This document shows, piece after piece, positions 4,440 through 40,578 of a stretch of DNA of 41,062 nucleotides. The DNA is from a bacterium. GTDB lineage: Bacteria; JBDRGX01. Under the pieces are notes generated by a model. It worked only from the letters and a program-made list of their open reading frames with translations, had not been told where the DNA came from and did no database searches. The stretch is taken from NCBI GenBank assembly GCA_043817485.1, contig JBDRGX010000078.1, positions 1 to 41,062 on the forward strand, written 5' to 3'. The position numbers were made by a program, and so were the translations under genes. How positions within the stretch are numbered: the stretch's first letter is position 1; each line of letters starts with the position of its first letter.

Positions 4440-4734
4440 TATATATAACGACTTAAGTTAATTGGCATAAAAACTTAACTTTATCCATAAATACATTTGT
4501 TTGCATAAATTTTAATCCCTGTATCCCTGTACCTTTTCTCTTACATTTCGATATATATACCTTCTACAACAATGTCACCCCTTCGGGGTTTAATTGGTAA
4601 TTATTTAATAATTGCTATAATAATATCAGCCCTTCAGGCTTTAATATATATAACGACTTAACTTTATCCATAAATACATCTACTTGCATATTTTTTTTGA
4701 ATTGTTCGTTAACTATTTTTTGCCGTTATATATA
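4440..4734. repeat. 295-bp intergenic repeat, copy 1 (MITE-like or structured-RNA-like element)
   Basis: Near-identical to 8507..8801, with about a dozen differences by eye. Terminal inverted repeat TATATATAACGAC / GCCGTTATATATA. Internal direct sub-repeat (TATATATAACGACTTA...ACTTTATCCATAAATACAT) and two short GC hairpins (CCCC-TTCG-GGGG and AGCC-CTTCA-GGCT). Confidence 0.85.
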
Positions 4735-4795
4735 AAATAATTTAAAAATTGTAGATTAATCCCAATTATTTATCACTTTTATATTTTACATAAAT

Positions 4796-7700
4796 TTAAA
4801 ATTGCTGTTCAATGCTTATTTTCTTTGCTTTCTTTTTAATAGTTTCTAATAAACGACTTACTAAATCCTTTTTTATTTTTATTTCTTCTTTTTCTATTTT
4901 ACAAAACAAATCTTGATATATTTTTAAAGCTTTTTTGTTTTGATCCATATTTTCCCAACAACTTGCAATATAAAGATAAGCATTTATACTTGTTAAAGTA
5001 TTTGGATATTTTTCAATTACTTTTTGATACGCTTTTATTGTTTGTTCAAAATAAATTCCAGCATCTTTTTCATAAGTTTTAGTTACAGTAAGTTTATACA
5101 ACTTATTTGCTTTTTCTATTTCTTTTAAAGCTAATGCTTCTATACAATCATTTATTGATTCTTTTGCTTTTTCTACTTCTTTTGTTTTATTATATTTACT
5201 AATTACTTTATTATATTCTTGAATAGCAAGTTCATATTCTTTGTTATTAAAAAATAAATTTCCTTTTTTTAATTGAATTCTTGGAGCATCAAGATGTGAA
5301 GGAAAATGTAATAAAATTTTATCATAAGTTTTTACTGCTTCTATTATATTATTTTGTTTTTCATAACATTCAGCAATAGTTTCTAAACTATTAAAAACAT
5401 ACTTACTTTGAGGAAATAAATTAATAAATTGTTCATAAGATTTTTTTGCTTCTTCAAATTTCATTTGATTCCAATAAGATTCTGATAAAAAAAATCTTGC
5501 ATTTTCTAAAATTTCTTTTTCTTTGCTATATTTTTCTATTATTGATTGAAAAACAGGAATAGATTTTTCATAATCTCCATAATTATAAAATGCTTGACCA
5601 ATACTAAAATAAGCACAAGCTTTTAATTTTTCTTTTACATCTGGATTATCTATCACTTTTTTAAAATACTGAACAGCTTCATTAATATTTCGTTTCTTTA
5701 AAAACACAGAACCAATTTTATAAGTTGATTGAGAAGCATAATTTTTAACTTTAGAAAGTGAATTATAAATTTCTAAAGCTTTAGATTCATATTCTACATC
5801 TTTATCTGTAATTAAATTTCTGTAACACTCTGCTAATCCATATTTTGCATCATTTATTAAATCACTTCGAGAAAAATTATTTATTACTTCCTGATATTTT
5901 TTAATAGATACATCATATTTTTCTTGTTTTCTTAAAACATTAGCCAAAGATAAAATAATACGAGCTTTTATATTATATTTTTGAGATAGTGTTAAAGATT
6001 CATTAAAACTTTTTTCAGATTGTTGTAAAAGATTTTTATCTTCTTCTAAATTTCCTTTTTGCATTAAAAGCACGGCTTTTGCTTCACCTTCTGCTTGCAA
6101 AATTAATTTATTTATTTTTTCAATATCATTTAATTTTTGTTTTTGATAACATAAAGATAAATTATAAACAGATGGAAAAATAATATCAGAATTAGGATAT
6201 TTATAAATAATTTTTTCAAAATATTTTTCTGCATCTTGAAAATCATTTTCTATAAAATAACATTGTCCTATTTGATAAAAAATTTTATCACCAATTTCAT
6301 TACTTGCTATTTCATTTTCTAAACATAATTCATATTCTTTTTTTGCATCTTTATAATTTTTTTGATTATAATACAAAAAACCTTTTTTATATCTTACTCT
6401 AACTTTTGTTTTATCTCCTAATTCCTTTCTTGTTAAAATCTCATCACATTTTTTTAAAGCATCTTCTATTTTACCAGTTTTTTCTAAAAGATTTATAATT
6501 TGAAGTTCTGCTTGTCCAACTAATTCTCCTTCAGTTATTTCTTGAAAACATTTAAAAGCTTTATCTAATTGATTTGCAACATCATAAACTAAACCTAAAT
6601 TAAATTTTGCTTTTACTTTAACTTCATCATCTAAATTTTGTTGAGATAATATTTGAGTATAAAGAGAAATTGCTTCTTCTAATTTTCCTAATTCTTTTAA
6701 TACTAATCCAATATAAATTTGAGCGTCATATACATATCTTGTATCTTTATAATTTTCAAGTATTTTATTAAATTCTATTTTTGCTTGATCATATTCTTCT
6801 TTAAAATAATATATTTCTCCTATGTCTAATTGAGCTAATGCTTTAATTTCATTTTCTACATCACTTTCAATAATTTTTTTATCTTCATTAATAGCTAAAT
6901 TAATATCAATTTCTCTATAAATTTCACTTAATTTTATTTTTGCAAATTTATAAAAATTACTTTCTTTAGATATTTTCTTTAAATTATCCAAAGCTTTTTT
7001 AATATTATTTCTATCTTGAGTAATTAATTCAAAATAAACTAAACCTAATTTATAATAAACATTATCTATAATATAAGATTTGGGATATTTTGAGACAACT
7101 TCTTCTAAACTTGTAATAGATTTTTGAAGTTCTCCTTGTGTATAATAAATTTTTGCTTCTAAATAAATTACTTCATCTAAAATAAAAGTTTCAGAATATT
7201 TTTTTCTTATTTCACTAAGAAAATTTTTAGCCATTTCCAAATCATTTTTTTCAAAATAACATTTGCTTAAACCAATTAGTACTTTATCTGTTAAATCAGG
7301 ATCTTTTTCATAATCAAATTTTCCAGATATTTTGATTTGTTGTCCCTTATATAACTCATTATATTTCTTAATTGCTAATTCAAAATTTTCTAAAGTATAA
7401 TAACTATCAGCTAAAATCAATTTTGCATCATCTGCATATCTATGATTAGAATAATCTGGATTAATTTCAAAATATTTATAATTTGCTACGATAGAATTAT
7501 AATCTTTTAAATTAAACATACATTGAAACATTCTATATCGTGCTTCTGGAGATAAATCTGGATCATTAGGATATACCTTTTCTAATGTAATAAAACCATC
7601 TAATGCTTCTTTAAATTGACCCATTTTATAATAAGACCAAGCAATTCCATAATAAGCTAACTTTTCAGCTCTTGTATTTGGAAATCTTTTAATTACAATT

Positions 7701-8916: not shown

Positions 8917-11487
8917 TTAAAATCCTGCATATATATTTAAAAATATTTTTTCACTATCCCATTCATCAGAAATATTTAAAGCATCATAATGTTCTGTAGT
9001 ATATCCAATGGTTACAGCAATATCATATCCACGAAATTGAGATTTATTAATAAGTTGAACAGATTTTAGAAAAGAAGTAAAATTATCAGTTGGATTTATG
9101 TTAAATATATCTGTTCTTTTTTGAACACCACCAACAAGTGATAAAGTAGGAGAAAATTCATATACTATTAAATTTGCAATAATTGTTTTATATTCATCTT
9201 TTTTTAAAGACCTTACATTTACTATTTTAGTCATATCTCCAGTTCCTATTGCTTTATTTCCTGTTGGAAAAGTAGTTTCAAGTTCAAAATTCATCAAATC
9301 TGGCATATTACGAGTTCTTTCATAATATTCCTTATTTTCATTAGACCAATTATAATTTTTTACAATATATTTTCCCATAGGTTTAAAATAAATTTGTCTA
9401 CAAAAATTAATTTTTTCTAAAGAAGAAAAAATAGAAGTTAAAGGAATTTTATAAAAAAATCTTGATAAAAAACCAATAGAATTAATTGTATTATTTTCTT
9501 TATTCTGATCATTGTTAATCCATTTGAATTTAGAAGTAAAATTAAATCCTTTTATTCCAGAATATTCAAACATAGCAAAAATTGTTTTAACTAAACTATC
9601 TTCATATAAAATCATATCATCAAAATATTTGCGAAAAGCACCCGGTTTTCCCATGTCTACAAAAATAGGAGAAGTTGAATCCATTGATGAAATATCAGCT
9701 TTTTTATCTATTTCAGAACGCCTTTGTTCTACACAATCATCTGGAATATTATCTGCAACTTTTTTTAATCTTGCTTCCCATACTAATTTACCTATAATAT
9801 TTTCCTTAAAGTTTATTTTTTTTTCTTGAGAAGTTATAAATTCAATAAAATTATTTTCACCTATATGAGGATTTCTTCTTTCACAAGGATCTTTTTGTGG
9901 AAAAGAAAGATAATCACCATATTCTGCATGTTTTCCTAAATCTACTTTTTCTTTTTCTAATTTAATATTTATGGAAAAATTCACATCTTTCCATAAATAT
10001 TCACTAATTAAACCTAACCCATCTCTATTGCGAGAATAAGCATAATCAAAATTACGATCATTTTCAAATTTATCTATTATTTCATTATTATTATTATCAT
10101 TCCCTTTTTCATATTCTGGAGAATCTTGAAAACAAATTAAAAAATCTTCTTCATAATCTGGAATACCATTTCTGTTTTCATCAATATCTGGAATATTATT
10201 TGCATCCTTATCTAAACCAGGAAAAACTCCATCTTTATCACCTAACATAAAACCCTCTGATTCTATGAAAAGTAAAGCATCCGGAACATTATCTGCATAA
10301 CGATCATTATCATCATTATCATCTACATATACATAATCTGAAAACCCTTTTCTTCTTGCTGTTTTCAAAGAACCCCAGTTATCAGTTATTGATTGCCAAT
10401 ATGATTTTTGCGAATTAAAAGTATCATAAACTGGAACAAAAGAAAATAAATAATAAGGATCTACATAATATTTTTCTAATCCTATTTTTAAATTTTTACC
10501 AAAAAATCTTTCTCCTTTTAAAAAATAAGCATAAGTTTGTCCTTTTGTTTTATCTCTATAAATTTCTTCATATTTAGAATTTATTACTTCACTATAAGCA
10601 TAAGATACATCTGCATATCCTTGTGAATCTATATTAACATAATCAGAAGATTTTTTTAATTCTTTAAAACTTTTTCCATCAAAAAATTTTTCATTACTAA
10701 CTAATTCTGTTTCAAAATTCCAACCCCATTTTGAACCTCTTAAATCCATTCCTATAAGCGATTGACCTGTAAGATCTCCTATTTTATCTGGATTTGGATC
10801 ATAACCATATAAAGAATTCTTTTTATTAGAATCTTTTCCAAAAGAATAAAAATTACAATGATTCATATAGGTAACACCTAATCTCATTATATCTCCTAAA
10901 CGAAATACATTATGAACTCCATATAAATAATGAGATTCTAATGTCGAATAGATGCTACTAGTTGGAGTATCCTCTCTACTATTAAAAAAAACTTCTCTTG
11001 ATATAGAACTTTTAGAATTATTTAGACGAACTGGTTTATCTGTATTAGTAGCTAAAATAGTAAATTCATTTCTATCATTAAATATATCCCATCTAAATCC
11101 ATGAAATTGAGATTTTTTAAAAGTAAGGTTTGTAAAACTGGTTTTTATTTCATCCCCAAACATAATTCGAGAATGAATTTTATTTTCACCAAAAGAATCT
11201 TTAGCAATAATTAAATGATTCATAAAAGATTGATATTGAGGAGCTTTATTTAAAATATTACCAGTAGTAAGAGGTGTTTCTCTTCCAAAAGTTAAAACAT
11301 TAATTCCTTCAAGTAAATATCCTCCAAAAGGATCATACAATACTTGCGTATTTGCTTTTTGAACCCAATCTTCATAATCTTCTTCACCATAATTTTTATA
11401 GTCTCCATTAATATTTACTTCAGCAAAAGCGCCATTTATTAATCCCAAAAACATAATTAAAAACGAAATAATTAAATTTTTCATCAA
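8917..11487 (-). CDS. putative outer-membrane beta-barrel protein with acidic thrombospondin-type-3-like Ca-binding repeats
   Basis: Signal peptide MMKNLIISFLIMFLGLINGAFA. The C-terminus IFLNIYAGF has alternating hydrophobics and a terminal Phe, as in an OMP beta-signal. Central region: DDNDDNDRYADNVPD...DKDANNIPDIDENRNGIPDYEED. Confidence 0.5.
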   Translation of the reverse strand: MMKNLIISFLIMFLGLINGAFAEVNINGDYKNYGEEDYEDWVQKANTQVLYDPFGGYLLEGINVLTFGRETPLTTGNILNKAPQYQSFMNHLIIAKDSFGENKIHSRIMFGDEIKTSFTNLTFKKSQFHGFRWDIFNDRNEFTILATNTDKPVRLNNSKSSISREVFFNSREDTPTSSIYSTLESHYLYGVHNVFRLGDIMRLGVTYMNHCNFYSFGKDSNKKNSLYGYDPNPDKIGDLTGQSLIGMDLRGSKWGWNFETELVSNEKFFDGKSFKELKKSSDYVNIDSQGYADVSYAYSEVINSKYEEIYRDKTKGQTYAYFLKGERFFGKNLKIGLEKYYVDPYYLFSFVPVYDTFNSQKSYWQSITDNWGSLKTARRKGFSDYVYVDDNDDNDRYADNVPDALLFIESEGFMLGDKDGVFPGLDKDANNIPDIDENRNGIPDYEEDFLICFQDSPEYEKGNDNNNNEIIDKFENDRNFDYAYSRNRDGLGLISEYLWKDVNFSINIKLEKEKVDLGKHAEYGDYLSFPQKDPCERRNPHIGENNFIEFITSQEKKINFKENIIGKLVWEARLKKVADNIPDDCVEQRRSEIDKKADISSMDSTSPIFVDMGKPGAFRKYFDDMILYEDSLVKTIFAMFEYSGIKGFNFTSKFKWINNDQNKENNTINSIGFLSRFFYKIPLTSIFSSLEKINFCRQIYFKPMGKYIVKNYNWSNENKEYYERTRNMPDLMNFELETTFPTGNKAIGTGDMTKIVNVRSLKKDEYKTIIANLIVYEFSPTLSLVGGVQKRTDIFNINPTDNFTSFLKSVQLINKSQFRGYDIAVTIGYTTEHYDALNISDEWDSEKIFLNIYAGF

Positions 11488-13885: not shown

Positions 13886-16800
13886 TTATTTTATTATACT
13901 AAATTTTCCTTTAAAAACATTTTTTTTTCCTTCTTCATTAAGTCCTTCAAAATAATAAAGATATATTCCACTACTTAATTTTTCTGGATTCCACTCAATT
14001 TTTTTTTGTTTTTTCTCAAAAATTATTTCAGATATTAATTCTCCAACAATATTGTAAATTTTAATTTTATTTTCATTTGCTTCTATTTTATCAGGCAAAA
14101 CAAAAGTTATTACTTGATGTTTTCTCCATAAAAATGGATTAGGATATATAAGAAATTTTTCTGATAATCCTAAATTAAAATTATAATTAAAAACAGTTTC
14201 TGTTTCTACTTTATTATATGCCTTATCCATAGCAATAAATTTAATTTTATATTCTCCTTCTAAATTTAAAAAACTTATTGGTATTAAAAATTTCAATTCT
14301 GTTTTTTCTTTATTAAAAAATTGCAATTCTAAATCAACTTTTTTTTGTGATGAATATTCACAATATGCTTTATTTACAAATATAAGCCCTTCTGAAGAAG
14401 AAAGAATTACTTCACATTTTCCTAATGATATATTAACTTTTGTTTTTATCTCAGGAATTATTTCATCAACAGGATTAATCGCTCCAAGCGGAATATTATT
14501 TTCTGTATTTAAAACTTTTGTTGTGTTAATACATGGTATTCCCCAAAAATTATTAGCATAAACTGGAATAACTGCATAATAATAAAAATAAGAATAATTC
14601 AATATTTTTTGTTCATTACCTTCTTTTAAATATTTCATATCAATATCTAAAAAAGTTGTTGTATCTATAAATTCTGTTTTTTCTTTACTAACACTTGCTA
14701 TAATATTTATATCATCAATTTGCATTCCATCTTTTTCAATTCCATCATCACCAGTATAATCATCTTTTCCAGAAAAAAAATCTTCCATTTCTTTTTTTAT
14801 ATTATTTACAGTACCTATTTCTGTAATTTTTGATCCTTCATTTATTTTTATGTATTTTTTTCTTAAAATAAGCCATTCTTTTACATCATTTATATTTCCT
14901 TCTGAAATCCATGAAATTTTTATATCTCCATTTTTCATTTCTTTTTCTTCATTTTCTATTTTCTTTTTTTCTATTACCCAATCCAGTTTTATATCTTCTT
15001 TCATTTTTACTTCAGGTAATTTATCTAAAATATCAGCAGAATAAGTGAAAGAAAAATTTTCAATTTTTTCTGCATATAAATTAGAAATTATTATGTCTAT
15101 TTTTAAAACATTTGTCCCAAAATCTTTTATTAAAACTTGTGCACATTGACTTGGATTATATAAAAACACTTCTTTTACTTCTACTTTATTATTAGCCAAA
15201 TGTTTAATAAGCCATACTCCATAACCTGCTGTTCCATAATAATCAAAAATTTCTTTTTGTGATTCTGGAATAAATGAAGATTTAAAATTAATTACTAATG
15301 TTCCTTGTCTTCCTTCTGGTAAAAAACGAATACACTTAAATCCTAAAAATTCAGGCACTTCTTCTTGAGACATTTTTTTAATTAAAGGATAATTTTTATG
15401 AATATATGCAGGATAAATTTGTATATTAGGAAAATCTTCTCCTTTTGAATAATGATATGCTGAATATTTTTGTAAATCATCTTTATGTGTTTGCGTAAGA
15501 CCCAAATCTAATTTATAATTTTCACCCGTAAAATAATTCCAAAGTGTAAATTCTTTAAAAAGAGAGCCAAATTTTTCTGCATATCTTAATGAAAAAACAT
15601 TTCCAAAATTAACTAACTTTTCATAAGATCCTTCTGCAAAACTTTCATAAAGAACTTTTATTACTTCATTTCCTAATTTTTCTGATAAAAATTTTGTCCA
15701 AAGAAATCCTCCATATTCATATGAACCATCAAATGTAGTAATACTTTTATCAAAATATAAAAATCGATTTAAAAGAAATTTTTTAATATCTTGATAACCA
15801 TCTAATTCTGCAGAATCAATTTCAAATCCTTTATTTTGAAAAATTTTTATTTCACCATTTTTTAATCCTATTACTAAATCTACATCTTCATCATAATCTA
15901 TATCTGCAAAAGAAATAAAAAAGGTTTCTTTTAATAAAGGCAAATTATTATTTGTTAATATAAATTTAGAATTAAAAACATTTCCTTCATTCCGATAAAA
16001 ATAAATTTTTTCATTTTCTCCATTTTCTCCAGAAATTAAAAGATCTAAATCTTTATCTTTATCTATATCAACTAATACAGGCACAGAATAAGAACCAACA
16101 TTTATATCCAAATATTTTTTAGAAACACATTCCCATAAATATTCTTCTTTTTCTACTTTTTTAATCCTTTTATATAAACTTATAGTTCCATTTTCTTTTC
16201 CAACAATAAGTTCTAATTCACCATCTCCATCTAAATCTCCTAATGTAGGTGATGTATTTTTATCTCCCGTATCTATAGATGGCCATATTTTCCCCCAATT
16301 TACACCATCATCTTCAAATTTAATACCTATTTCTGGTTTTTCTGGCACAATATTTTGTATACTAATACTCCCTTTAAAAAATTCTATTTTTCCATTTTCT
16401 TGTCCAATAACTAAATCCAACACATTATCTTTATCTAACAAATAAAATGCTGGCCTAAGTCTTGTTTTTCCCAAAAACTGCATTTTACTTCCAATATTTA
16501 ATTTACCTGTTTGATTTAAATATATTATCAATTCATCTTTTTCATTACCAATAATTACATCTAAATAACCATCTTCTAACAAATCTACTATTACAGGGGA
16601 AGCAAAATCTCCTACATCAATTAATTTTGAATTATTATTTTCAAAAGATTGAATTAAATTATTTTGAGTATCTTCTTGCCATAAAAAAACATCTTCTTTT
16701 TTTCCATCATAAACAATAGCTTCTCCCCATACTGCACAATTTTCCATAAACCAATTAGGCATTAAAAAATTATAACCAAATTGGATTCCATGAAAAAATT

Positions 16801-17539
16801 CATGAGCACAAGTTGTTTTTAAACATTCTTTAATCCTTGCTTTTCCAACCCATTTATAATAATTTACATTTATAGCAAAAAAAGGAGCAGCTGTTCCAAC
16901 AAAACTATTTGGCTTCATAGTAAGATACAAATCTATGGTTGCAAATCCACCCCATCCACCATCACTTCCAAAAATATAAACATCAATTCTTTCATCTCCA
17001 CCATTATCTTTTACCATTTCATCTGTTAATGGCTTTTTAAACTTCATTTTTTCAATATAAATTCGATAACTTTTTTCATAAGCTTCAGCACAAATATCAA
17101 TAATATCAGGAATCCCATTTATAGGAAATTCATCATAAGGATAAGCATGATAACCAAATTTAGTATAATGAAATTTAAAATGCGGTGTATCATAAATTAA
17201 TGGTAAAGAATCTTTACATGCCCAAGAATTTATATTTCCGGGTCTTGTAAAAAGTCCTTTTAATTTATTTCTTTTTTCAAATGAAATTTCTTCCCATTTT
17301 TTTTTTACTGTTAAAATATAAGGAGTTAAAGATTTTTGAAATTCATTTTGGGGAAAAGTATTTTTATCAAAACTTTGTTCTAAAATTGTTATTGCTTCTT
17401 GAACATCAATATCTGCATATAAAAAAGAAACAAAAAAATTTATAATAACAAAAAATAAAATTCCTTGCAATTTTCTGCAAGATATTTTTTCAACAAGATA
17501 TTTATTATTATATGGTTGATGACCCCACATGGTAACCAC
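13886..17539 (-). CDS. secreted HExxH zinc-metalloprotease-like protein with FG-GAP/VCBS repeats and a T9SS-type (Por/FlgD-Ig-like) C-terminal sorting domain
   Basis: TCAHEFFHGIQ motif near aa 245. Five FG-GAP-like units (e.g. GDLDGDGELELIVG, VDIDKDKDLDLLISG, ADIDYDEDVDLVIG). The C-terminal ~85 aa (IYPNPF...IKIYNIVGELI...LSSGIYLYYF...KFSIIK) match the T9SS CTD pattern. Confidence 0.7.
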   Translation of the reverse strand: MVTMWGHQPYNNKYLVEKISCRKLQGILFFVIINFFVSFLYADIDVQEAITILEQSFDKNTFPQNEFQKSLTPYILTVKKKWEEISFEKRNKLKGLFTRPGNINSWACKDSLPLIYDTPHFKFHYTKFGYHAYPYDEFPINGIPDIIDICAEAYEKSYRIYIEKMKFKKPLTDEMVKDNGGDERIDVYIFGSDGGWGGFATIDLYLTMKPNSFVGTAAPFFAINVNYYKWVGKARIKECLKTTCAHEFFHGIQFGYNFLMPNWFMENCAVWGEAIVYDGKKEDVFLWQEDTQNNLIQSFENNNSKLIDVGDFASPVIVDLLEDGYLDVIIGNEKDELIIYLNQTGKLNIGSKMQFLGKTRLRPAFYLLDKDNVLDLVIGQENGKIEFFKGSISIQNIVPEKPEIGIKFEDDGVNWGKIWPSIDTGDKNTSPTLGDLDGDGELELIVGKENGTISLYKRIKKVEKEEYLWECVSKKYLDINVGSYSVPVLVDIDKDKDLDLLISGENGENEKIYFYRNEGNVFNSKFILTNNNLPLLKETFFISFADIDYDEDVDLVIGLKNGEIKIFQNKGFEIDSAELDGYQDIKKFLLNRFLYFDKSITTFDGSYEYGGFLWTKFLSEKLGNEVIKVLYESFAEGSYEKLVNFGNVFSLRYAEKFGSLFKEFTLWNYFTGENYKLDLGLTQTHKDDLQKYSAYHYSKGEDFPNIQIYPAYIHKNYPLIKKMSQEEVPEFLGFKCIRFLPEGRQGTLVINFKSSFIPESQKEIFDYYGTAGYGVWLIKHLANNKVEVKEVFLYNPSQCAQVLIKDFGTNVLKIDIIISNLYAEKIENFSFTYSADILDKLPEVKMKEDIKLDWVIEKKKIENEEKEMKNGDIKISWISEGNINDVKEWLILRKKYIKINEGSKITEIGTVNNIKKEMEDFFSGKDDYTGDDGIEKDGMQIDDINIIASVSKEKTEFIDTTTFLDIDMKYLKEGNEQKILNYSYFYYYAVIPVYANNFWGIPCINTTKVLNTENNIPLGAINPVDEIIPEIKTKVNISLGKCEVILSSSEGLIFVNKAYCEYSSQKKVDLELQFFNKEKTELKFLIPISFLNLEGEYKIKFIAMDKAYNKVETETVFNYNFNLGLSEKFLIYPNPFLWRKHQVITFVLPDKIEANENKIKIYNIVGELISEIIFEKKQKKIEWNPEKLSSGIYLYYFEGLNEEGKKNVFKGKFSIIK

Positions 17540-26218: not shown

Positions 26219-26712
26219 AAAGGTAAGTCAGATGGTCGCAAAAGCATTTATACCAAATTGCATTCAAAATGATAATAAAATGGATAGAAGAAAACAACGG
26301 AAAAGAATTAAAAATTCCACCCCCTACCCCCGCCAGCAGGGGACAAAAGAAATTAAAAATTAGTTAGATAAAAATCTGGCGATGAAATTAACACAATTAG
26401 CATTTGAATACGATTTGGTATTTAGCTTTTGAGGAAAGTCCGAGCTTCATAGGTCAAGATGCCTGTTGTTAAAACAGGTAAAGGTAACTTTAAGGAAAGT
26501 GTCACAGAAAATATACCGCCTTGTTTTTTAACAAGGTAAGGGTGAAAAGGCGAGGTAAAAGCTCACCGCTAATGTAGGTAACTATATTAGCAGACAAACC
26601 CCATCTGAAGCAAGATCAAATAAAAAACTATAAGGCTGACCCCCTTGTTTTTGGGTAGATCGCTTAGATAAATGACCATCAAATACAGAACTCGGCTTAT
26701 GACTTACCTTTT
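26219..26712 (+). ncRNA. rnpB: RNase P RNA, bacterial type A, with an abnormally long P3
   Basis: Universal P4 halves GAGGAAAGUCCGAGC and ACAGAACUCGGCUUA. GGUAAGGGUGAAAAGG and AGCAAGAUCAAAUA-type conserved blocks. P1 AAGGUAAGUCA pairs with UGACUUACCUU. P2 GAUGGUC pairs with GACCAUC. Confidence 0.9.
26249..26422. mobile_element. MITE-like element, family A (TIR ATACCAAGTCGTATTCAAATG), located inside rnpB helix P3
   Basis: The left arm TATACCAAATTGCATTCAAAATG and right arm CATTTGAATACGATTTGGTAT are inverted repeats. The same terminal sequence recurs at 32382..32463 (both ends) and at 29263..29284 (one end). Confidence 0.65.
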
Positions 26713-26742
26713 AATAATTATAAAAAAATAGGGCAAATAAAA

Positions 26743-27815: not shown

Positions 27816-27904
27816 TGGTGCCGAAGGTCGGACTTGAACCGACACGAGTTTATACAACTCGGTGGATTTTGAGTCCACTGTGTCTGCCATTTCACCACTT
27901 CGGC
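27816..27904 (-). tRNA. tRNA-Leu (anticodon CAA) with a long variable arm and an encoded CCA
   Basis: The reverse complement folds as acceptor GCCGAAG/CTTCGGC, anticodon stem GTGGA/TCCAC with loop CT-CAA-AA, variable arm CGAGTTGTATAAACTCG, T arm GTCGG-TTCAAGT-CCGAC, then ACCA. Confidence 0.95.
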
Positions 27905-31681: not shown

Positions 31682-32356
31682 TTACTTTATCCCTACTTCT
31701 TCAACATGATGTCTTATATCTTTTCCTAATACCATAAAAATAACATCTTCAGCAATATTAGTAGCATGATCTCCAATTCGTTCTAAATGTCTTGAAATAA
31801 GAATTATTATTAAAATTTGTTCAAGAATTTGTGGGTTAGAAAGTCCTAATGTTAACAATTCTCTAAATATTTGATCTTTTAATTTATCTACTTCATTATC
31901 CATTAAAAGAACGCTTTTTGCTAAATTTACATCCTTATTTATAAATGATTCTAAACTTTTTTTAACCATTTCCATTGAAAGCAAGCTCATTTTTGGAAGA
32001 TTATTATGTGGTTCTAATTGAGGTTGCTTAAGTATTAAAGAAACGCTTTGTCCAATATTTACTGCTAAATCAGCAATTCTTTCTAATTCACTATTAATTT
32101 TCATTCCACCAGTAATAAACCGTAAATCAGCAGCTATTGGTTGATAAAGAGCTAAAAGATTTAAACACAATTCATCTATTTCTACATGAAAATGATTAAT
32201 TTCATTTTCATGTAAAAAAACTTCTTGAATTAAATTTTCTTCTTTTTGCATTAAAGATTTTATTGCTAAATCAACCATTTTTTCTGAAGTATTTCCCATT
32301 AAAAAAAGAGTTTCTTTTAATTCTTTTAATTTTTCATCAAAATGATGTCTTTGCAT
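31682..32356 (-). CDS. phoU: phosphate signalling complex protein PhoU
   Basis: 224 aa with two PhoU repeats carrying the E..ERI(A/G)D.A.NIA motif (ELERIADLAVNIG and HLERIGDHATNIAED). Confidence 0.9.
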   Translation of the reverse strand: MQRHHFDEKLKELKETLFLMGNTSEKMVDLAIKSLMQKEENLIQEVFLHENEINHFHVEIDELCLNLLALYQPIAADLRFITGGMKINSELERIADLAVNIGQSVSLILKQPQLEPHNNLPKMSLLSMEMVKKSLESFINKDVNLAKSVLLMDNEVDKLKDQIFRELLTLGLSNPQILEQILIIILISRHLERIGDHATNIAEDVIFMVLGKDIRHHVEEVGIK

Positions 32357-32494: not shown

Positions 32495-33250
32495 TTAGCC
32501 AAACCTACCAGTAATATAGTTTTCAGTTTGTTTTTCTTGTGGATTTGTAAATATTTTGTTTGTTACCCCAAATTCTACTAATTCACCTAATAACATAAAT
32601 CCTGTTTCATCTGAAATTCTTGATGCTTGTTGCATATTATGGGTCACAATAACAATTGTATAATCATTTTTTAAAAAATAAATTAGCTCTTCTACTTTTT
32701 GAGTGGCAATAGGATCTAATGCAGAACAAGGTTCATCCATAAGCAAAATTTCTGGTTTTATTGGTAAAAGCCGAGCAATACATAATCGTTGTTGTTGTTC
32801 TAATGAAAGTTTTAAAGCTGAAGTATGCAATTTATCTTTTAATTCATCCCATAACATTACAGATTCTAAAGAGTTTTTTACAGCTTTTTCTATTTCCTCT
32901 TTTTTAATAGATATATGATGAATTCTAAATCCAAAAGCAATATTTTCAAATACAGAAAAGGGAAATGGATTAGGTCTTTGAAAAACCATACCAACTTTTT
33001 TTCGAAGATTAATTAAATTTGCTTTTGGATGGTATATATCTTCATTATCAATAATTACTTTACCTTCAATTTTTATTTTTTCAATCAAATCATTCATTCT
33101 ATTAAACACTCGCAATAAAGTTGATTTTCCACAACCAGATGGACCTATTAAAGCAGTAATCTTATTTGGTTGAATTTCAACATTTACTTCTTTTAATGCT
33201 TGAAATTTTCCATAATAAAGATTTAAATCTGAAGTTTTAATAATTGCCAA
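32495..33250 (-). CDS. pstB: phosphate ABC transporter ATP-binding protein, paralog 2 (catalytic motifs canonical, signature motif degenerate)
   Basis: Walker A GPSGCGKST, Q-loop VGMVFQRPNPFP, Walker B LLMDEP, H-loop VTHN and the PstB C-terminus ENYITGRFG are canonical. The ABC signature reads LSLEQQQRL instead of LSGGQQQRL. Confidence 0.9.
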   Translation of the reverse strand: MAIIKTSDLNLYYGKFQALKEVNVEIQPNKITALIGPSGCGKSTLLRVFNRMNDLIEKIKIEGKVIIDNEDIYHPKANLINLRKKVGMVFQRPNPFPFSVFENIAFGFRIHHISIKKEEIEKAVKNSLESVMLWDELKDKLHTSALKLSLEQQQRLCIARLLPIKPEILLMDEPCSALDPIATQKVEELIYFLKNDYTIVIVTHNMQQASRISDETGFMLLGELVEFGVTNKIFTNPQEKQTENYITGRFG

Positions 33251-33395
33251 AAAATTCTCCTATATTGAAAAATTTAATCAAACTTTTTTATAAAATTGCA
33301 TTAATATTTTTTTATAATTTTGCATTTTATTTACAATCATTTCATGAAAATACATTTTTGAAATTACTTCTTTTTTAAAATTTGAATATTTAAAA

Positions 33396-34046
33396 TTATT
33401 GTGAAATCATATAAACCAACCCCTCATCAATCTTTTCAAGATCTAATAGTACTTTTTCTCTCCTTGGAGAGCCATCAGCATTTCTGAAATCTCTCTGAAA
33501 CGAACCACATTTAACCAAGGTGTCATCTGTTATTTCAATGAAGGAAATTTGCTGTAAATCAAAAGATACCTTTCTTAATCTTGACCATGCACCTCTTTTT
33601 ATTCGTTCAATTGAATATTCCGATAATCCACCTTTCAACACTTCATGCCATTTCTGAAATGTTCTACCCTCATCGTTATATAAAACTTTTCCTAAAGCAA
33701 GAATTAAACCAACTGCTTTATAATCCTTAATTCCATTTACAGTGGCTTCACTATCATTAACGATTATTTGGTGACTACTTGTGTTAATAGCATGTGCTTT
33801 GAAATCCCATGGGATATTTTTAAAACCATCAAATTCAACATTCCCATATTTTTGTCCAGGAATCTCCATAATATCTAATAAATATCTCTCACAAAGAAAT
33901 TGAAAATAAAAGCCAATCCATTCCATTTGCTTCCAATGTGAATAATTTGCATTTTTCATCTCCAAGATTGATTTTCTTCCATCCCATATTTTTGGAATTT
34001 TTTTTAATTTTTTTTCAATCTGTTTAGCGGTTTCTAAAAAAGTCAT
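33396..34046 (-). CDS. putative type II restriction endonuclease (PD-(D/E)xK candidate)
   Basis: 216-aa ORF whose ATG overlaps the methyltransferase stop (ATGA). Possible catalytic pattern VEFDG-x7-DFK. Its composition is clearly less AT-rich than its neighbours. No family recognised by eye. Confidence 0.45.
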   Translation of the reverse strand: MTFLETAKQIEKKLKKIPKIWDGRKSILEMKNANYSHWKQMEWIGFYFQFLCERYLLDIMEIPGQKYGNVEFDGFKNIPWDFKAHAINTSSHQIIVNDSEATVNGIKDYKAVGLILALGKVLYNDEGRTFQKWHEVLKGGLSEYSIERIKRGAWSRLRKVSFDLQQISFIEITDDTLVKCGSFQRDFRNADGSPRREKVLLDLEKIDEGLVYMISQ

Positions 34047-34900
34047 TTCCCCTTCTCCATGTCAAATAGTGTTAATAATGTTTGGTTTTTAGAATTTTCA
34101 TTTATTTTTTTAATCCTATAAATATTTTCTTCTAATCGTTTTTTTGCAAATTCATAATAATCTTTTACAATTTCAAATCCAATATACTGCCTTCTTCTCA
34201 TTTTGCTAACAATTGCTATCTGTCCTGAACCTAAAAATGGATCCAAAACAATATCTCCTTCTTCACTTGAATACATAAGTATTTTTTCAATTAATTCAGC
34301 AGGTAATTTTGTAGGAGTTTTTTGGTCGCCTGTCCAATATTCTCTTTTTATTATCCAAACATCTTCTTTATCTTTATAATGTAAACTCCCACCATCTTTA
34401 TCATTATCTTCTTTTCCATATCTTGAATAAGGGAAAAATTTTTTCTTTTCATCATTTTTACAGACATAAAGACAATGATAATGAGAAGTGACAAATTTTC
34501 TTTTTGTTACTACTCCAAATTGATATTTCCAGATAATATGATTTATTGTGATAAAACCCAATTCATCAATGACTATTAAAATATCCTTTAGATTATTCCA
34601 GCCAGAAAAAACATACATACTCCCTGAATCTTTAAGAACTCTGTATATTTCTTTCATCCATTTTATTGTAAAATTGAAGTATTCTGTTTTGGGTATCTCA
34701 TTGTATCCTTCTATAACACTTGAAGATGTTCTATTGTAATTGTTTCTTTTTGCTTTGAAATCTATAGCAAAAGGTGGGTCAGTAATAACAAGGTCTATTG
34801 TATTATTAGGAATACCTTTTATTCCTTCTATACAATCCATATTATAGATTTCATTAAATTTTAGATTTTCCATATTTTTACTTTCTTTTATTAATAACAA
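34043..34900 (-). CDS. beta-class N6-adenine/N4-cytosine DNA methyltransferase (DPPF type, probably m6A)
   Basis: Motif IV IDLVITDPPF lies near the N-terminus and motif I DIVLDPFLGSGQ near the C-terminus, which is the beta-class order. An alternative start is at 34873 (MENLKFNEIYNMDC). Confidence 0.85.
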   Translation of the reverse strand: MLLIKESKNMENLKFNEIYNMDCIEGIKGIPNNTIDLVITDPPFAIDFKAKRNNYNRTSSSVIEGYNEIPKTEYFNFTIKWMKEIYRVLKDSGSMYVFSGWNNLKDILIVIDELGFITINHIIWKYQFGVVTKRKFVTSHYHCLYVCKNDEKKKFFPYSRYGKEDNDKDGGSLHYKDKEDVWIIKREYWTGDQKTPTKLPAELIEKILMYSSEEGDIVLDPFLGSGQIAIVSKMRRRQYIGFEIVKDYYEFAKKRLEENIYRIKKINENSKNQTLLTLFDMEKGK

Positions 34901-35005
34901 AAAATAATTAACGAATGACTTAAAAAATTATGAGATAAATAAAATATATCTACTGATAGAATTCTTTATGTCAATTAATTTAAGCCGTTACATATATTAT
35001 TTTTT

Positions 35006-35767
35006 CTATCCAAATCTTCCAGAAATATAATCTTCTGTTCGTTTATTTTGAGGTGTTGTAAATATTTGATTAGTATTACCTATTTCAATTAGATCACCCA
35101 TTAAAAAAAAACCAGTACGATCACTTACACGAGCAGCTTGTTTAGTATTATTAGTTACTAATATTAATGAATATGTTTTTTTTAATTCATACATTGCTTC
35201 TTCTATTTTCATAGTTGAAATAGGATCAAGTCCAGAACAAGGTTCATCAAAAAGAATTATTTCTGGTTTTAAAGATAATGTTCGAGCAACACACAATCTT
35301 TGTTGTTGTCCTCCAGAAAGAATTAAAGCTGATTCGAAAAGTCTATTTTTAACTTCATCCCAAAGATATGATGCTTTCAAACTTTCTTCTACAACTTCTT
35401 CTAACAAAGATTTTTTTTTAATGCCACTTCTTCTTAATCCATAAGCAACATTATCAAATATAGACATTGGAAGTGGTATTGGTAAAGCAAAAATCATTCC
35501 TACTTTTCTTCTTAAAACTTCTACATCAATATTTTTACTAAATATATCTTGATCATTTATCAAAACTTTTCCTGTTATTGAAATATTTGATTTTAAATCA
35601 ATTAAACGATTCAGTACTTGAAGAAATGTAGTTTTACCACTATTAGACGGACCAATAATACTTAAAATTTCATTTTTTTGAAGATTAAGAGAAATAGATT
35701 TTAGAATTTCATAATTATCATCACATTTAATGCTTAATTTTTCTACAACTACTACATCTTTTACCAT
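35006..35767 (-). CDS. pstB: phosphate ABC transporter ATP-binding protein, paralog 1 (signature motif canonical, catalytic motifs degenerate)
   Basis: PstB-like throughout, including the C-terminal EDYISGRFG and signature LSGGQQQRL. Walker A is GPSNSGKTT, the Q-loop is VGMIFALPIPLP (Q to A) and the H-loop is VTNN (H to N). Confidence 0.85.
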   Translation of the reverse strand: MVKDVVVVEKLSIKCDDNYEILKSISLNLQKNEILSIIGPSNSGKTTFLQVLNRLIDLKSNISITGKVLINDQDIFSKNIDVEVLRRKVGMIFALPIPLPMSIFDNVAYGLRRSGIKKKSLLEEVVEESLKASYLWDEVKNRLFESALILSGGQQQRLCVARTLSLKPEIILFDEPCSGLDPISTMKIEEAMYELKKTYSLILVTNNTKQAARVSDRTGFFLMGDLIEIGNTNQIFTTPQNKRTEDYISGRFG

Positions 35768-36615
35768 TTTTGCTTACTCCTTAAATTAGAACGAATAATA
35801 ATAGCAATTAAATTAACACCAAATACTACTCCTAATAAAACTAAAGCAGTAGCATATCTTGTATTTAAAGCAATATTTGGAATTTGAGTAGAAATAGCAA
35901 AAAGATGCATAGGCAAAGCCATTACTTGATCAAAAGCAGATTTAGGAAGCTGTGGTAAATAAAAAGCAGCAACTGTAAAAAGAATAGGAGCTGTTTCTCC
36001 AGCAGCTCTACTAATTTCAAGAATAATTCCCGTTAAAATACCAGCAATAGAATTAGGAAGTACAACATGTTGTATAGTTTGCCATTTAGAAGCACCTAAT
36101 GATAAACTTACTTCACGAAAAGATTGAGGTACATTAGATAAAGATTCTCGTGTAGTAGTAATAATTACTGGTAAATTCATAATAGCTAAAGTAAGAGATC
36201 CTGCTAAAATAGAAGTGCCAAATTTAAAAAATATTACAAAAAGACCTAATCCAAAAAGACCATAAACTATTGAAGGAACACCAGCAAGATTAATAATAGC
36301 TAATTTAAGTAATCGCGTAAATAAATTTTTTTTTGCATATTCATTTAAGTAAATCGCTGTTAAAACACCTATTGGTACTGCAAAAATAACTGCTCCAAAT
36401 ACTAAACAAAAAGTTCCAATAATTGCTGGGAATACTCCTCCCTCTCGCATTCCATTTCGAGGAAAAGTAGTTAAAAATTCCCAATTTATAACTCCTATAC
36501 CATTTTTGATAATAATTAAAATAATTAATATTACTGGTAATATTATTAATAATGTAATTAAAAAAAGAAGAAAAAAAATAATTTTTTGAGTTATTGGAGC
36601 TGATAATTTTTTCAT
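35761..36615 (-). CDS. pstA: phosphate ABC transporter permease PstA
   Basis: 284 aa, polytopic, with an EAA-type loop (SLGASKWQTIQHVVLPNS). It is the second permease after pstS-pstC and overlaps pstC by 4 nt. Confidence 0.9.
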   Translation of the reverse strand: MKKLSAPITQKIIFFLLFLITLLIILPVILIILIIIKNGIGVINWEFLTTFPRNGMREGGVFPAIIGTFCLVFGAVIFAVPIGVLTAIYLNEYAKKNLFTRLLKLAIINLAGVPSIVYGLFGLGLFVIFFKFGTSILAGSLTLAIMNLPVIITTTRESLSNVPQSFREVSLSLGASKWQTIQHVVLPNSIAGILTGIILEISRAAGETAPILFTVAAFYLPQLPKSAFDQVMALPMHLFAISTQIPNIALNTRYATALVLLGVVFGVNLIAIIIRSNLRSKQKW

Positions 36616-37496
36616 AATTTTTCCTTATGTAAAAAGAAATCAGCTATAAGATTTATAATAAAAGCAATAATAAAAAGAACTATCCCAACAGCAAATAAAG
36701 CAAAATAATGATTACTTCCTTGAACAGTTTCTCCCATTTCAGCAGCAATTGTAGCTGTAAGAGTTCTCACTGGATCAAGTAGACTATGTGGAATTTTAGC
36801 TGCATTTCCAGTTAACATCATTACTGCCATAGTTTCTCCCATAACTCTACCTATGCCTAACATACAAGCAGCAACAATTCCAGGAAAAGATGCTTTTAAA
36901 ATTACTCTCCAAATAGTTTGCCAATGAGTAGCACCAAAAGCTAAGCTAGCTTCACGATATCTTCGAGGAACAGAAGTAATGGCATCTTCCGCAATACTTA
37001 CAATAGTAGGCATTGCCATAATAGAAAGCATAATAGAACCAGTAAAAGCAGTAAGTCCAGTATCTAAATTAAATACTTTTTTAACAATTGGAACCAATAT
37101 TTCTATTCCAATAAAACCAATTACAACACTTGGGATAGCAGATAAAAATTCTATTCCAATTTTAAGAAATTCTTTTATTTTCCCTTTTGATATTTCTGCA
37201 ATAAATATTGCTGCAGCAATTCCACAAGGAATAGAAATAATAGCCGCACCCAAAGTAACCATTGCAGATCCAAGTATTAAAGAAAGAATTCCAAATACAG
37301 GTGGACGAGAAACTGGATGCCATTTTTCTCCCAAAATAAAATCTTTTAAACTAATTTTTTTAAAAATAGAAATGCCTTCTTTAAATAAAAAAAGAAAAAT
37401 TAAAACTACTAAAATAATAGAAATAAAACCACTTAATTTAACAATTGTCTCAAAAATAGATTCAAATAGTTTTTTTAAAGTTAGTTTTTTTAACAA
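36612..37496 (-). CDS. pstC: phosphate ABC transporter permease PstC
   Basis: 294 aa, polytopic, with an EAA-type loop (EASLAFGATHWQTIWRVILKAS). It is the first permease downstream of pstS. Confidence 0.9.
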   Translation of the reverse strand: MLKKLTLKKLFESIFETIVKLSGFISIILVVLIFLFLFKEGISIFKKISLKDFILGEKWHPVSRPPVFGILSLILGSAMVTLGAAIISIPCGIAAAIFIAEISKGKIKEFLKIGIEFLSAIPSVVIGFIGIEILVPIVKKVFNLDTGLTAFTGSIMLSIMAMPTIVSIAEDAITSVPRRYREASLAFGATHWQTIWRVILKASFPGIVAACMLGIGRVMGETMAVMMLTGNAAKIPHSLLDPVRTLTATIAAEMGETVQGSNHYFALFAVGIVLFIIAFIINLIADFFLHKEKL

Positions 37497-37538: not shown

Positions 37539-38384
37539 TTATCTAATTGGCACAAAATTAATTTTTTCCACAATTTTTTGACCTTGTTCGCTTAATATAA
37601 AATCTATAAATTTTTTTACAGCACCCGAAGGTTCTCCATTAGTGTACATTAATAAAGGTCTACTAATAAAATAACTGTTATTTTTCACACTTTCAATTGT
37701 AGGAAATACAAAAGGACTATTATTGTCTTTTGCTACAGCAATATTTTTTTGTTTTGGACTAATATATCCAATTCCATAATAACCAATAGCATTTACATTT
37801 TGAGCTACTTCATCAGCAATTGATTGTGAAGATGGTAAAAATAAAGTATTTTCTATATATTCTTTCCCTTCTCCTAATACATGTTCTTTAAAATAAACAT
37901 AAGTACCTGAATTACATTCTCTGGAAAGAATTACAATTTTAGCATTTTTTCCTCCAAGTTCTTTCCAATTAGTAATTTTGCCAGTAAAAACATCTGAAAG
38001 TTGACTAATAGTAAGTTTTTCTATTGGATTAGAAGGATGTATTACTACAACTATACCATCCATTCCTACAATAAATTCTTTAAATTCAACTTGCTTATTT
38101 TTTGCTATTTCTAATTCTTCTTGTTCTATTTTTCTTGAGCTAGACGCAATATCACAAGTTTTATTAAGTAAAGAAGCAATCCCATTTCCAGAGCCACCGC
38201 CAGTTACAGAAATACATAATTTTGGATCTTGTTTCATAAATTCTTCTATCCAAGCTTGAACTAAATTGATCATAGTGTCTGACCCTTTAATTTGAATAGA
38301 ATTTTCTTTTTTATTAGATGGAACACAACTAAATAAAATAAAACAAAATAAAACACTCAAAATAAATAAATTTTTTTTAAACAT
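37539..38384 (-). CDS. pstS: phosphate-binding lipoprotein PstS (PBP-like 2 family)
   Basis: Lipobox LFSC, then IQIKGSDTMINLVQAW, SVTGGGSGNGIASL and AIGYYGIGY. GGAGGG RBS. Confidence 0.85.
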   Translation of the reverse strand: MFKKNLFILSVLFCFILFSCVPSNKKENSIQIKGSDTMINLVQAWIEEFMKQDPKLCISVTGGGSGNGIASLLNKTCDIASSSRKIEQEELEIAKNKQVEFKEFIVGMDGIVVVIHPSNPIEKLTISQLSDVFTGKITNWKELGGKNAKIVILSRECNSGTYVYFKEHVLGEGKEYIENTLFLPSSQSIADEVAQNVNAIGYYGIGYISPKQKNIAVAKDNNSPFVFPTIESVKNNSYFISRPLLMYTNGEPSGAVKKFIDFILSEQGQKIVEKINFVPIR

Positions 38385-38453: not shown

Positions 38454-39779
38454 TGTCCTGGCTTCAAGATGTGGTTACAAATTAACATTCCAAAACCTCC
38501 TCTTTTTCACTTCTTCTCCTAATAAAATCATATCCTAAAACTTGTCCTGTAATGATCAGTTTTTCTTCCACCCCCTTTCTCTTATTTGTCATTGTTATTT
38601 TTATTTTATTGATTCCAAATTTCCTTGTCAAGCATTTTTTTGAATTTGTTGATAAATGTGCCTCTGCTGGTGTAGCATAACCATTTTTCTTCAGCTTATA
38701 ACCCTGATGAGTTCTCCTGTAGTTATAATAGTCCATAAATCCATCTAAATCATCTTGAAGCTTCTCTATGCTTTCATACCTCTTCTTTCTGAAAGCTAAA
38801 GAGTAAAACTCATTTAATATAGTTTCATTTAATCTCTCCACATAACCATTAGTCCAAGGATGCCTTACCTTTGTGGTTGTGTGTTTTATCCCAAGCTTCT
38901 TGCACATTTTCTCAAATTCGTGATTTGGGATTGCCTCTTTATGCCAGGTAGTATATTCTGTCCCACAATCAGTAAGAATTCTTTCTATTTTTACCGTATC
39001 AAACTTCTTTGCAAGATGATTTTTCACAAAGTCGCACGAAGTGTTCACAGTTTTGTTAGTATAAATCTTTGCTAAACCAAAAGAAGAAAAACAATCACAG
39101 GCAACTTGATGGTAAATTCTACCTATTCCCTTCAAATAGCCAATATAAAAAGTATCTTCGCTTACTAACTGCCCCGGATAATTTGCCTCTATGTGATTAG
39201 TTTTAGATTTCTCTTTATCCCTTTGAAGCTCATCAAAAGTCACAATTTCCCCATTTAATTTCCTTATCCATTCCAATCGCATTTTTACTGTGTTTAGTCC
39301 TCTTCTTTGTAGAACATTATAAATTCCAGTATGCCCTACAATAATATTTTTTCTTGAAAGTTCTGCCTCTATTCTTGCCGGTCCATATGTAGGATAGTCT
39401 TTTATAAACTCAAGTATTTTTCCCTCAAGTTCTACTGGCACTTTATTCGGCATTTTAGGATTTGCTCTCATTTTCGTTCTTAATCCATTATCTCCATTTT
39501 TATCTCTCCTCTTTTTCCACTTATAAAACCATTTTCTGCTTACATGATACCTTTTACAAAAACAGGTTATTGAAATTTCCTTCTTATTTGCTTCTTCAAA
39601 TATTTTGATTCTCATGTGGTAAATAAAATCCTTCTCGCTCATTGCCAGTCCCTCCTTTTAACAATGTTTTAATAGAGGTTCTGGTTAAAGTCAAAAAAGA
39701 AATGTTATTTACAATTTCTTTAATTTCCTTTCTTGCTCTTTTACTCAAATATTGTAACCATCACTTGAAGATACTACAA
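38454..39779 (-). mobile_element. intact IS481-family insertion sequence
   Basis: Imperfect ~32-bp terminal inverted repeats: TGTCCTGGCTTCAAGATGTGGTTACAA versus the reverse complement of the right end, TGTAGTATCTTCAAGTGATGGTTACAA. Flanked by the 6-bp direct repeat CTAATT (38448..38453 and 39780..39785). One transposase ORF. Confidence 0.8.
38482..39642 (-). CDS. IS481-family DDE transposase (integrase/rve catalytic core)
   Basis: 386 aa. N-terminal HTH (CKRYHVSRKWFYKWKKR), then an rve-type core (SEDTFYIG...TDCGTEY...HPWTNGYVERLN). Confidence 0.9.
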   Translation of the reverse strand: MSEKDFIYHMRIKIFEEANKKEISITCFCKRYHVSRKWFYKWKKRRDKNGDNGLRTKMRANPKMPNKVPVELEGKILEFIKDYPTYGPARIEAELSRKNIIVGHTGIYNVLQRRGLNTVKMRLEWIRKLNGEIVTFDELQRDKEKSKTNHIEANYPGQLVSEDTFYIGYLKGIGRIYHQVACDCFSSFGLAKIYTNKTVNTSCDFVKNHLAKKFDTVKIERILTDCGTEYTTWHKEAIPNHEFEKMCKKLGIKHTTTKVRHPWTNGYVERLNETILNEFYSLAFRKKRYESIEKLQDDLDGFMDYYNYRRTHQGYKLKKNGYATPAEAHLSTNSKKCLTRKFGINKIKITMTNKRKGVEEKLIITGQVLGYDFIRRRSEKEEVLEC

Positions 39780-39915: not shown

Positions 39916-40578
39916 ATGAAAAAATGTACATTAATAATAATTGGTATTTTTATTATAAGCTTTTTAAATATTAAAGCTGATATGAAAACATTTGGAACAA
40001 ATGGAGTAGGTGTTATGGACACTAATATGCAAGAAGCGTGGCCTGACGATTCTCAAGAAGCATATCATACATATTATATTTGTCCAGGTGGTGTAGGAAC
40101 AGAAAAAAGAGCATTACTTAAATTTAAAAATATATTTAAATCTGATGGCGGAACAATAGAAAATGGCTCAACTATTCAATTTGCTTATCTTGCACTGAGA
40201 TATTATCAATCTGGTTCTTTTACTTCAGGTAAATTTGAAGTTTATAGAGTAAAAAAAGATTGGGGAGAAGGAACTTCGACAAATTCTAAGGTAGAAATAG
40301 GCGCTGCTTGTTGGGATGCACCAAAACATGGATTCCCTAAATGGGAAAAAGCAGGATGTGATGGAGAAAGTGATCGAACTCAAATAGGAATACCAGGTGA
40401 AGCATTATGTCAAGAAGGTTCTACGGGAAACAAAGATATAGCAATTGATATAACTTCATTTGTTCAAGCATGGTCTAATGGAGAACCTAATTATGGACTT
40501 ATTATTATTTCCAAAGGTTTAGGAGGAGACAGGACAGCAGGATTTGCTTTTAGAGCTCATGAACAGACTGTGTCATAA
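39916..40578 (+). CDS. secreted DNRLRE-domain (CBM96-like) protein, with the C-terminus supplied or truncated by a MITE end
   Basis: Signal peptide, then ALLKFKNIF...GSTIQFAYLALRYY...FEVYRVKKDWGEGTST...DITSFVQAWSNGEPNYGLII, which fits the DNRLRE domain pattern. The last codons and the stop lie in the terminal repeat AGACTGTGTCATAA. Confidence 0.6.
   Translation: MKKCTLIIIGIFIISFLNIKADMKTFGTNGVGVMDTNMQEAWPDDSQEAYHTYYICPGGVGTEKRALLKFKNIFKSDGGTIENGSTIQFAYLALRYYQSGSFTSGKFEVYRVKKDWGEGTSTNSKVEIGAACWDAPKHGFPKWEKAGCDGESDRTQIGIPGEALCQEGSTGNKDIAIDITSFVQAWSNGEPNYGLIIISKGLGGDRTAGFAFRAHEQTVS

Follow-up and report, generated by a model that had tools for sequence, protein, structure and literature searches.

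The 41,062-nucleotide stretch of bacterial DNA analysed here (contig JBDRGX010000078.1 of assembly GCA_043817485.1, hereafter the window) carries a phosphate-specific transport (pst) operon with two different pstB genes, pstB1 and pstB2, whose products (referred to as B1 and B2 respectively) probably form an obligate heterodimer in which one ATP site is consensus and the other non-hydrolytic. In ATP-binding cassette (ABC) dimers, each site consists of the Walker A, Walker B, Q-loop and H-loop motifs of one nucleotide-binding domain (NBD) and the signature motif of the other NBD. Because of this standard geometry, all the defects found in the two window proteins fall in one composite site, to which B1 contributes the loops and B2 the signature, and the second composite site (B2 loops and the B1 LSGGQ) is fully consensus. 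An earlier note on this DNA had claimed such complementary defects, and the motifs together with the ABC geometry support it. A B1 homodimer would contain two sites without Gln and His, and a B2 homodimer two sites with LSLEQ; because either homodimer would thus have two defective sites, we infer from the sequences that a working site would come from the heterodimer only. We propose that pstB1 and pstB2 encode two different halves of the ATPase dimer in a distinct, widespread subtype of the Pst importer, in which the B2 catalytic loops and the B1 LSGGQ would form the one consensus site that performs hydrolysis. The site formed by the B1 loops (Walker A with Asn as its fourth residue, a Q-loop Ala and an H-loop Asn) and the B2 LSLEQ would have no useful hydrolysis rate, but would most likely still bind ATP and serve either as a clamp between the two subunits or as an allosteric gate, much as in heterodimeric ABC exporters, with B1 probably docked on the permease PstA.

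The motifs were assigned by alignment of both paralogs to Escherichia coli PstB (structure 9k3x), and their positions are listed in Table 1. B1 and B2 share 52% identity, both open reading frames (ORFs) are intact with the same boundaries as in the earlier note, and each motif reading given there for either paralog proved correct. B1 keeps the Walker A Lys but departs from the PstB consensus in having neither the Gln of the Q-loop, nor the His of the H-loop, nor Gly at the fourth position of Walker A, while B2 lacks both signature glycines and is otherwise canonical (Walker A GPSGCGKST, Q-loop VFQRP, Walker B LLMDEP, D-loop SALD and H-loop VTHN). The corresponding E. coli residues, G46, Q98, H210, G156 and G157, are 100% conserved in the 72 canonical PstB sampled, and because the substituted positions are otherwise invariant, the changes in B1 and B2 are not chance variation. 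Each protein is a PstB paralog, and neither is a canonical PstB. Both also have the PstB-specific C-terminal tail TEDYI[ST]GRFG. The loss of the A-loop aromatic residue in the window B1 is a detail absent from the earlier note.

By sequence, fold and context the system belongs to the PstB family. B2 scores above and B1 slightly below the curated equivalog cut-off of TIGR00972 (Table 1), yet TIGR00972 is by far the top family of B1, which aligns to E. coli PstB with an E-value of 1.5e-72. An AlphaFold2 model of B1 (mean predicted local distance difference test score 92.6) has E. coli PstB as its top match in the PDB (9k3x_C, template modeling (TM) score 0.94, root-mean-square deviation 1.2 Å), followed by 9k3s_C (TM score 0.91), and predicts that B1 is a complete PstB-like NBD fold. 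As for the context, both pstB genes belong to a pst operon with pstC and pstA, together with pstS and phoU. B1-type proteins score at or below the equivalog cut-off and are given generic names; with separate family models for each type, phosphate uptake would be better annotated in Elusimicrobiota, Omnitrophota, Desantisbacteria, Aminicenantes, Planctomycetota, and related groups.

The degenerate motifs are conserved well beyond the window. All 120 best B1 homologs (61-91% identity) share the pattern GP[AS]xSGK[ST]x, F-A-[LTM]-P, LSGGQ, D-E and V-T-N-N, the fourth Walker A residue being Asn or a near variant, and all 120 best B2 homologs (66-79% identity) combine canonical catalytic loops with a signature of the form L-[ST]-x-[ED]-Q, of which LSLEQ is the commonest. 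The earlier note would have taken canonical motifs in orthologs as a sign of lineage noise or errors; contrary to this, the homologs of each paralog, from several candidate phyla, keep the degenerate motifs in 120 of 120 cases. A more distant B1 subtype in metagenome-assembled genomes (MAGs) of Aminicenantes/Acidobacteriota, with GPAGSGKST and VFATP, follows the same pattern. The source names of the B1 homologs include Elusimicrobiota, Desantisbacteria, Poribacteria, Omnitrophota, Margulisiibacteriota and Aminicenantales, and all named homologs of the subtype are MAGs. In a search of a 50%-clustered representative library with B1, the top 150 matches are mostly canonical PstB or fragments; this library also holds PstB-like proteins that are more strongly degenerate (P0332, P0352, P0371 and P0380).

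In a neighbour-joining tree of 159 PstB sequences, the B1-type proteins form one clade and the B2-type proteins another, the latter nested among canonical PstB. Masking all 34 motif columns leaves both clades in place, with bootstrap values of 87/100 (B1) and 73/100 (B2). Clade-specific changes (in E. coli numbering) are T39L, G46N, C47S, S50T, Q98A, K99L, F103L, A183G, L195A, H210N and Q213K in B1, and K99R, A137V, V143L, R146K, G156L, G157E, G167L, A223G and F225M in B2, and they cluster in the catalytic loops of B1 and in the signature of B2.

Lineage noise, sequencing error or early pseudogenisation might also produce such substitutions, and the window is AT-rich (about 24% GC), its pst locus is disturbed by an insertion sequence (IS) element and a methyltransferase cassette, and a ratio of nonsynonymous to synonymous substitution rates (dN/dS) of 0.25 is not very low. 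However, the same residues occur in hundreds of independent assemblies from many phyla, both ORFs are intact, and the dN/dS between the window and its closest relative, L001, whose B1 is 91% identical, is 0.247 for B1, equal to that of pstA (0.238) and pstC (0.255). B1 is under the same purifying selection as the two permeases, and noise or a pseudogene is ruled out by this ratio and by the conservation of the motifs in homologs and metagenome loci.

The two types of pstB gene also occur together. We scanned metagenome contigs with a DNA pattern for the H-loop region of B1 (T-N-N-x-K-Q-x-A-R-V) and obtained 108 B1-type genes, 85 of which have at least 500 nucleotides (nt) of downstream sequence. 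The next gene is a same-strand pstB with a non-GG signature (B2-type) in all 85. These partners have the Q-loop VFQRP (85/85), the H-loop VTHN (83/83) and a Walker A of the form G[PS]SGCGK[ST][ST], and the B1 partners all have LSGGQ. The two genes are usually overlapping or closely spaced, and phoU lies immediately 3' of B2 in 59 of 81 B1/B2-type loci. The relatives L002-L004, L006 and L205 have the order pstS-pstC-pstA-pstB1-pstB2-phoU, with adjacent pstB genes and no insertion. A sample of 80 loci from genomes, found in a scan based on the B1 alignment with generic patterns, consists mostly of canonical PstB and was used as a control. Every single-pstB locus in it is fully canonical, and each B1-type gene with downstream room has a B2-type partner (in WOR-1, Planctomycetes, Acidobacteria, Desulfobaccales, and unnamed bacteria). 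Complementary pairing is thus a general feature of these loci (85/85), and in both samples the two different NBD genes are co-encoded wherever enough downstream sequence is available.

The WOR-1 genome L006 (positions 13-7158) carries a canonical pstA-pstB-phoU followed by a complete pstS-pstC-pstA-pstB1-pstB2-phoU operon, and because it holds both operon types in tandem, the B1/B2 type is a separate system and not a drifted copy. An extra canonical pstB is also found near the B1/B2 pair in L094, L128 and L154. Two copies of pstB alone do not imply asymmetry, because all-canonical tandem pairs exist. Carnobacterium L073 has, like the window, two tandem pstB genes downstream of pstA, but both are canonical in Walker A, Q-loop, signature and H-loop, without complementary degeneration. 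Another dual-pstB operon with canonical copies is pstBA/pstBB of Bacillus subtilis. Partly degenerate pairs, with Ala in the Q-loop, a retained H-loop His and the partner signature LSLGQ, are present in the Bacillota MAG L048 (4785-6529), Chloroflexota L054 (1262-5744), and L065 (2887-3657), possibly as intermediates or as independent origins.

Such canonical tandem pairs would fit a reading in which B1 and B2 do not work together but serve as alternative homodimeric motors or join other partners, for example under different phosphate regimes. So would the roughly 1.75 kb of inserted DNA between the two window genes, the ribosome-binding site that B2 has of its own, and the B1 of L001, which has no adjacent B2. 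We nevertheless regard separate action as highly improbable: the sites of a B1 homodimer would lack Gln and His, those of a B2 homodimer would both carry LSLEQ, and the 85/85 adjacency as well as the covariation between the two proteins described below favour a joint unit.

It is also conceivable that the pair is an ordinary two-site heterodimer with both sites active, in which the lost residues are compensated, for example by the clade-specific Lys at E. coli position 213 beside the H-loop. The Walker B Glu is kept in all B1-type proteins, and the whole B1 clade shares Q213K, at a distance of three residues from the His that is lost. We consider this quite improbable. None of the 72 canonical PstB deviates at the Q-loop Gln, the H-loop His or either signature glycine, and the concentration of all changes in one composite site beside a fully consensus one is the known pattern of a dead site. 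In HlyB, MalK and CFTR, hardly any ATPase activity is left when one of these positions is mutated; mutants of the H-loop His in HlyB and MalK lose nearly all of it, and the CFTR mutation G551D, an acidic residue at the second signature glycine that matches the one in B2, reportedly disables the site to which it contributes.

Within the favoured heterodimer, the dead site most likely retains ATP binding, because the Lys and Ser/Thr of Walker A, the Asp-Glu of Walker B and, in most members, the aromatic of the A-loop are preserved in the B1 clade. The first two motifs are conserved in 100% of the clade, so that a replacement of the catalytic Walker B Glu, which is common though not universal in the dead sites of exporters, is not found. 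The aromatic (F or Y) is present in 118 of 120 B1 homologs, the two exceptions being the window B1 and its 91% relative, P0002 of L001, which has Ser at this position. Alternatively, the degenerate site might hold no nucleotide at all, with B1 purely structural and protein contacts (e.g., between Asn42 of B1 and Glu151 of B2) taking the place of the ATP glue. The bulky Leu and acidic Glu that replace the signature glycines of B2, the Asn that replaces a Walker A glycine in B1, the covariation between these two positions, and the lost A-loop aromatic in the window and L001 all point in that direction. However, the complete conservation of the Walker A and Walker B residues, together with 118/120 for the A-loop, would be unexpected without selection for binding, and Pdr5 holds ATP in its degenerate site despite an LNVEQ signature. 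We therefore consider a nucleotide-free site unlikely.

The covariation involves position 4 of the B1 Walker A and, in the B2 signature, position 3, given here with the residue after it: Asn is paired with L-E in 51 of 53 cases, Gly with G-E in 10 of 13, Arg with G-E or E-E in 7 of 7, and His with D-E in 2 of 2. In mutual information with average product correction over 80 distinct pairs, B1-99 × B2-156 ranks 2nd and B1-46 × B2-156 ranks 4th of 23,840 inter-protein column pairs. Both results fit a co-evolving composite site but are suggestive only, as neither corrects for kinship.

B1 probably docks on PstA, because the coupling loop of PstA has subtype-specific residues and pstA overlaps pstB1. 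The EAA loop of the window PstA reads REVSLSLG, with V169 and S172 in the stretch of residues 168-174, in keeping with the R-E-V-S-x-S-L-G of PstA from B1/B2-type systems. At the same two positions, canonical PstA (n=57) have small residues, mostly Gly (V 0%, S 4%), and the contrast also holds inside the genome L006, between its canonical and its B1/B2 operon. The EAA coupling loop of PstC shows no difference between B1/B2-type and canonical systems. The 3' end of pstA overlaps the start of pstB1 by 7 nt, and the Q-loop of B1 is more hydrophobic, a further hint at this docking.

Several observations weigh against the proposed heterodimer with a single hydrolytic site. The Walker B Glu, kept throughout the B1 clade, sets it apart from most degenerate exporter sites, and residual hydrolysis is possible. 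The loss of the A-loop aromatic weakens the argument for ATP binding at the dead site in the window lineage, where this site may be degenerating further. In L001 the gene after pstB1 codes for pyruvate phosphate dikinase and there is no pstB2 nearby, and in the window an insertion separates the two genes, so that this lineage need not co-express them tightly. Both the covariation and the PstA comparison ignore the phylogenetic kinship of the sequences. A broader proposal, that a phylum-spanning class of Pst importers works as obligate single-catalytic-site machines with a permanent ATP hinge in the dead site, one ATP per cycle, B1 bound to PstA and B2 to PstC, could in our judgement go either way. 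If true, it would amount to an experiment of nature in which a single hydrolytic site suffices for a type I ABC importer, and such a design might be of advantage to uncultured lineages that are short of energy and mostly anaerobic.

The system shares with E. coli PstSCAB (cryo-electron microscopy structures 9k3x, 9k3y and 9k3s) the operon logic of pstS, pstC, pstA, pstB and phoU and the protein families. It differs in that the E. coli PstB is a homodimer with two identical consensus sites, whereas the window encodes two diverged subunits with one degenerate site, and in the coupling-loop residues of PstA, some of which are specific to the subtype. Heterodimeric ABC exporters with one degenerate site include TM287/288, BmrCD, LmrCD, TAP1/2, CFTR and Pdr5. 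They follow the same logic as B1/B2, with catalytic-loop changes in one NBD, a degenerate signature in its partner and a consensus second site, and the LNVEQ of Pdr5 resembles the LSLEQ of B2. However, their NBDs are fused to transmembrane domains, whereas in the window system, a type I importer that depends on a binding protein, the NBDs are subunits of their own. Further, another residue usually stands in for the Walker B Glu in the dead sites of exporters, whereas B1 keeps an invariant Glu and loses the Q-loop Gln. The sugar importers RbsA and MglA of the carbohydrate uptake transporter 2 group are likewise importers with non-equivalent ATP sites, but have fused tandem NBDs in one polypeptide, belong to a different NBD family and transport a different substrate. 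Although well known in ABC exporters, such an asymmetric arrangement is not known to have been described for the Pst importer.

There is a long-standing debate on whether two hydrolytic sites are required in ABC importers and on the amount of ATP spent per substrate; engineered HisP heterodimers with one dead subunit reportedly still transport, while MalK is said to require both sites. A conserved natural single-site Pst importer, if true, would be a defined system in which to measure this, comparable to the E. coli PstSCAB structures (released 2026), and genomes with both types, e.g., L006, would allow a side-by-side comparison. The principle of one consensus and one degenerate site would then extend from exporters to a binding-protein-dependent importer, by a different route to the dead site in which the Q-loop and H-loop residues are lost and the Walker B Glu is kept.

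The order of genes in the window is pstS-pstC-pstA-pstB1-[insertion]-pstB2-phoU, all on the minus strand (Table 1). The strongest promoter-like site of the region lies just upstream of pstS, and pstB2 has an AGGAGA ribosome-binding site 7 nt ahead of its TTG start. In a promoter and terminator scan, no terminator-like sites were found in the pst operon, and promoter-like sites were no more frequent in it than in shuffled sequence.

Table 1. Features of the pst locus and motifs of B1 and B2, in window coordinates.
Feature	Position	Strand	Remarks
pstS, periplasmic phosphate-binding protein	37539..38384	-	TIGR02136, 263 bits, above cut-off
pstC, permease	36612..37496	-	TIGR02138, 296 bits
pstA, permease	35761..36615	-	TIGR00974, 291 bits
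pstB1, ATPase subunit with degenerate catalytic loops	35006..35767	-	TIGR00972, 333.6 bits (cut-off 343.2)
Type II DNA methyltransferase, in insertion	34043..34900	-	PF01555, 148 bits; PADLOC MTase_II, E 3.7e-67
216-aa ORF, in insertion	33396..34046	-	no family match; overlaps methyltransferase end by 4 nt
pstB2, ATPase subunit with degenerate signature	32495..33250	-	TIGR00972, 383.8 bits, above cut-off
phoU	31682..32356	-	TIGR02135, 204.5 bits
B1 A-loop	35717-35728 (residues 14-17)	-	C15 replaces aromatic (E. coli Y20), one-residue insertion alongside
B1 Walker A, GPSNSGKTT	35627-35653 (residues 39-47)	-	N42
B1 Q-loop, IFALP	35480-35494	-	A94
B1 signature, LSGGQ	35306-35320	-	intact
B1 Walker B, ILFDEP		-	D174/E175 kept
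B1 D-loop, SGLD		-	
B1 H-loop, VTNN	35147-35158	-	N206
B2 signature, LSLEQ	32795-32809 (residues 148-152)	-	L150, E151
Promoter-like site	38428-38401	-	strongest of the region
IS481-family transposase	38482-39642	-	244 bits, above cut-off

The insertion between pstB1 and pstB2 (33396-34900) occupies a position where relatives have 0-160 nt, and the methyltransferase is missing at this position in L002-L004, L006 and L205. Searches of Pfam, NCBIfam, PADLOC and PDB sequences gave nothing significant for the 216-amino acid (aa) ORF beside it; from its position it is probably the cognate restriction endonuclease, and the two genes are probably a restriction-modification pair inserted in the pst operon. 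A search for repeats flanking the methyltransferase cassette found nothing convincing. Immediately upstream of pstS is an IS481-family transposase gene. In L001 (1-6055), pstC-pstA-pstB1 is flanked upstream by a ribA-like gene and purE and downstream by the pyruvate phosphate dikinase gene, with no pstS, pstB2 or phoU adjacent, and no B2 about 90% identical was present in the database searched. The pst locus is undergoing rearrangement in the window lineage. On comparison, the gene after pstB1 in L001 was rejected as a counterpart of the 856-aa ORF of the window, and an ORF upstream in L001 was rejected as pstS.

Elsewhere in the window, three ORFs have no Pfam match, namely the 856-aa ORF at 8917-11487 (-), one of 304 aa at 36-950 (-) and one of 220 aa at 39916-40578 (+). 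A bacterial class A ribonuclease P RNA lies at 26414-26715 (+) and a transfer RNA gene at 27819-27904 (-), and the GC skew changes sign at about 25-27 kb, where the orientation of the genes switches. A 1217-aa protein encoded at 13886-17539 (-) has FG-GAP repeats and a type IX secretion sorting domain, which suggests a Fibrobacteres-Chlorobi-Bacteroidetes (FCB)-like lineage.

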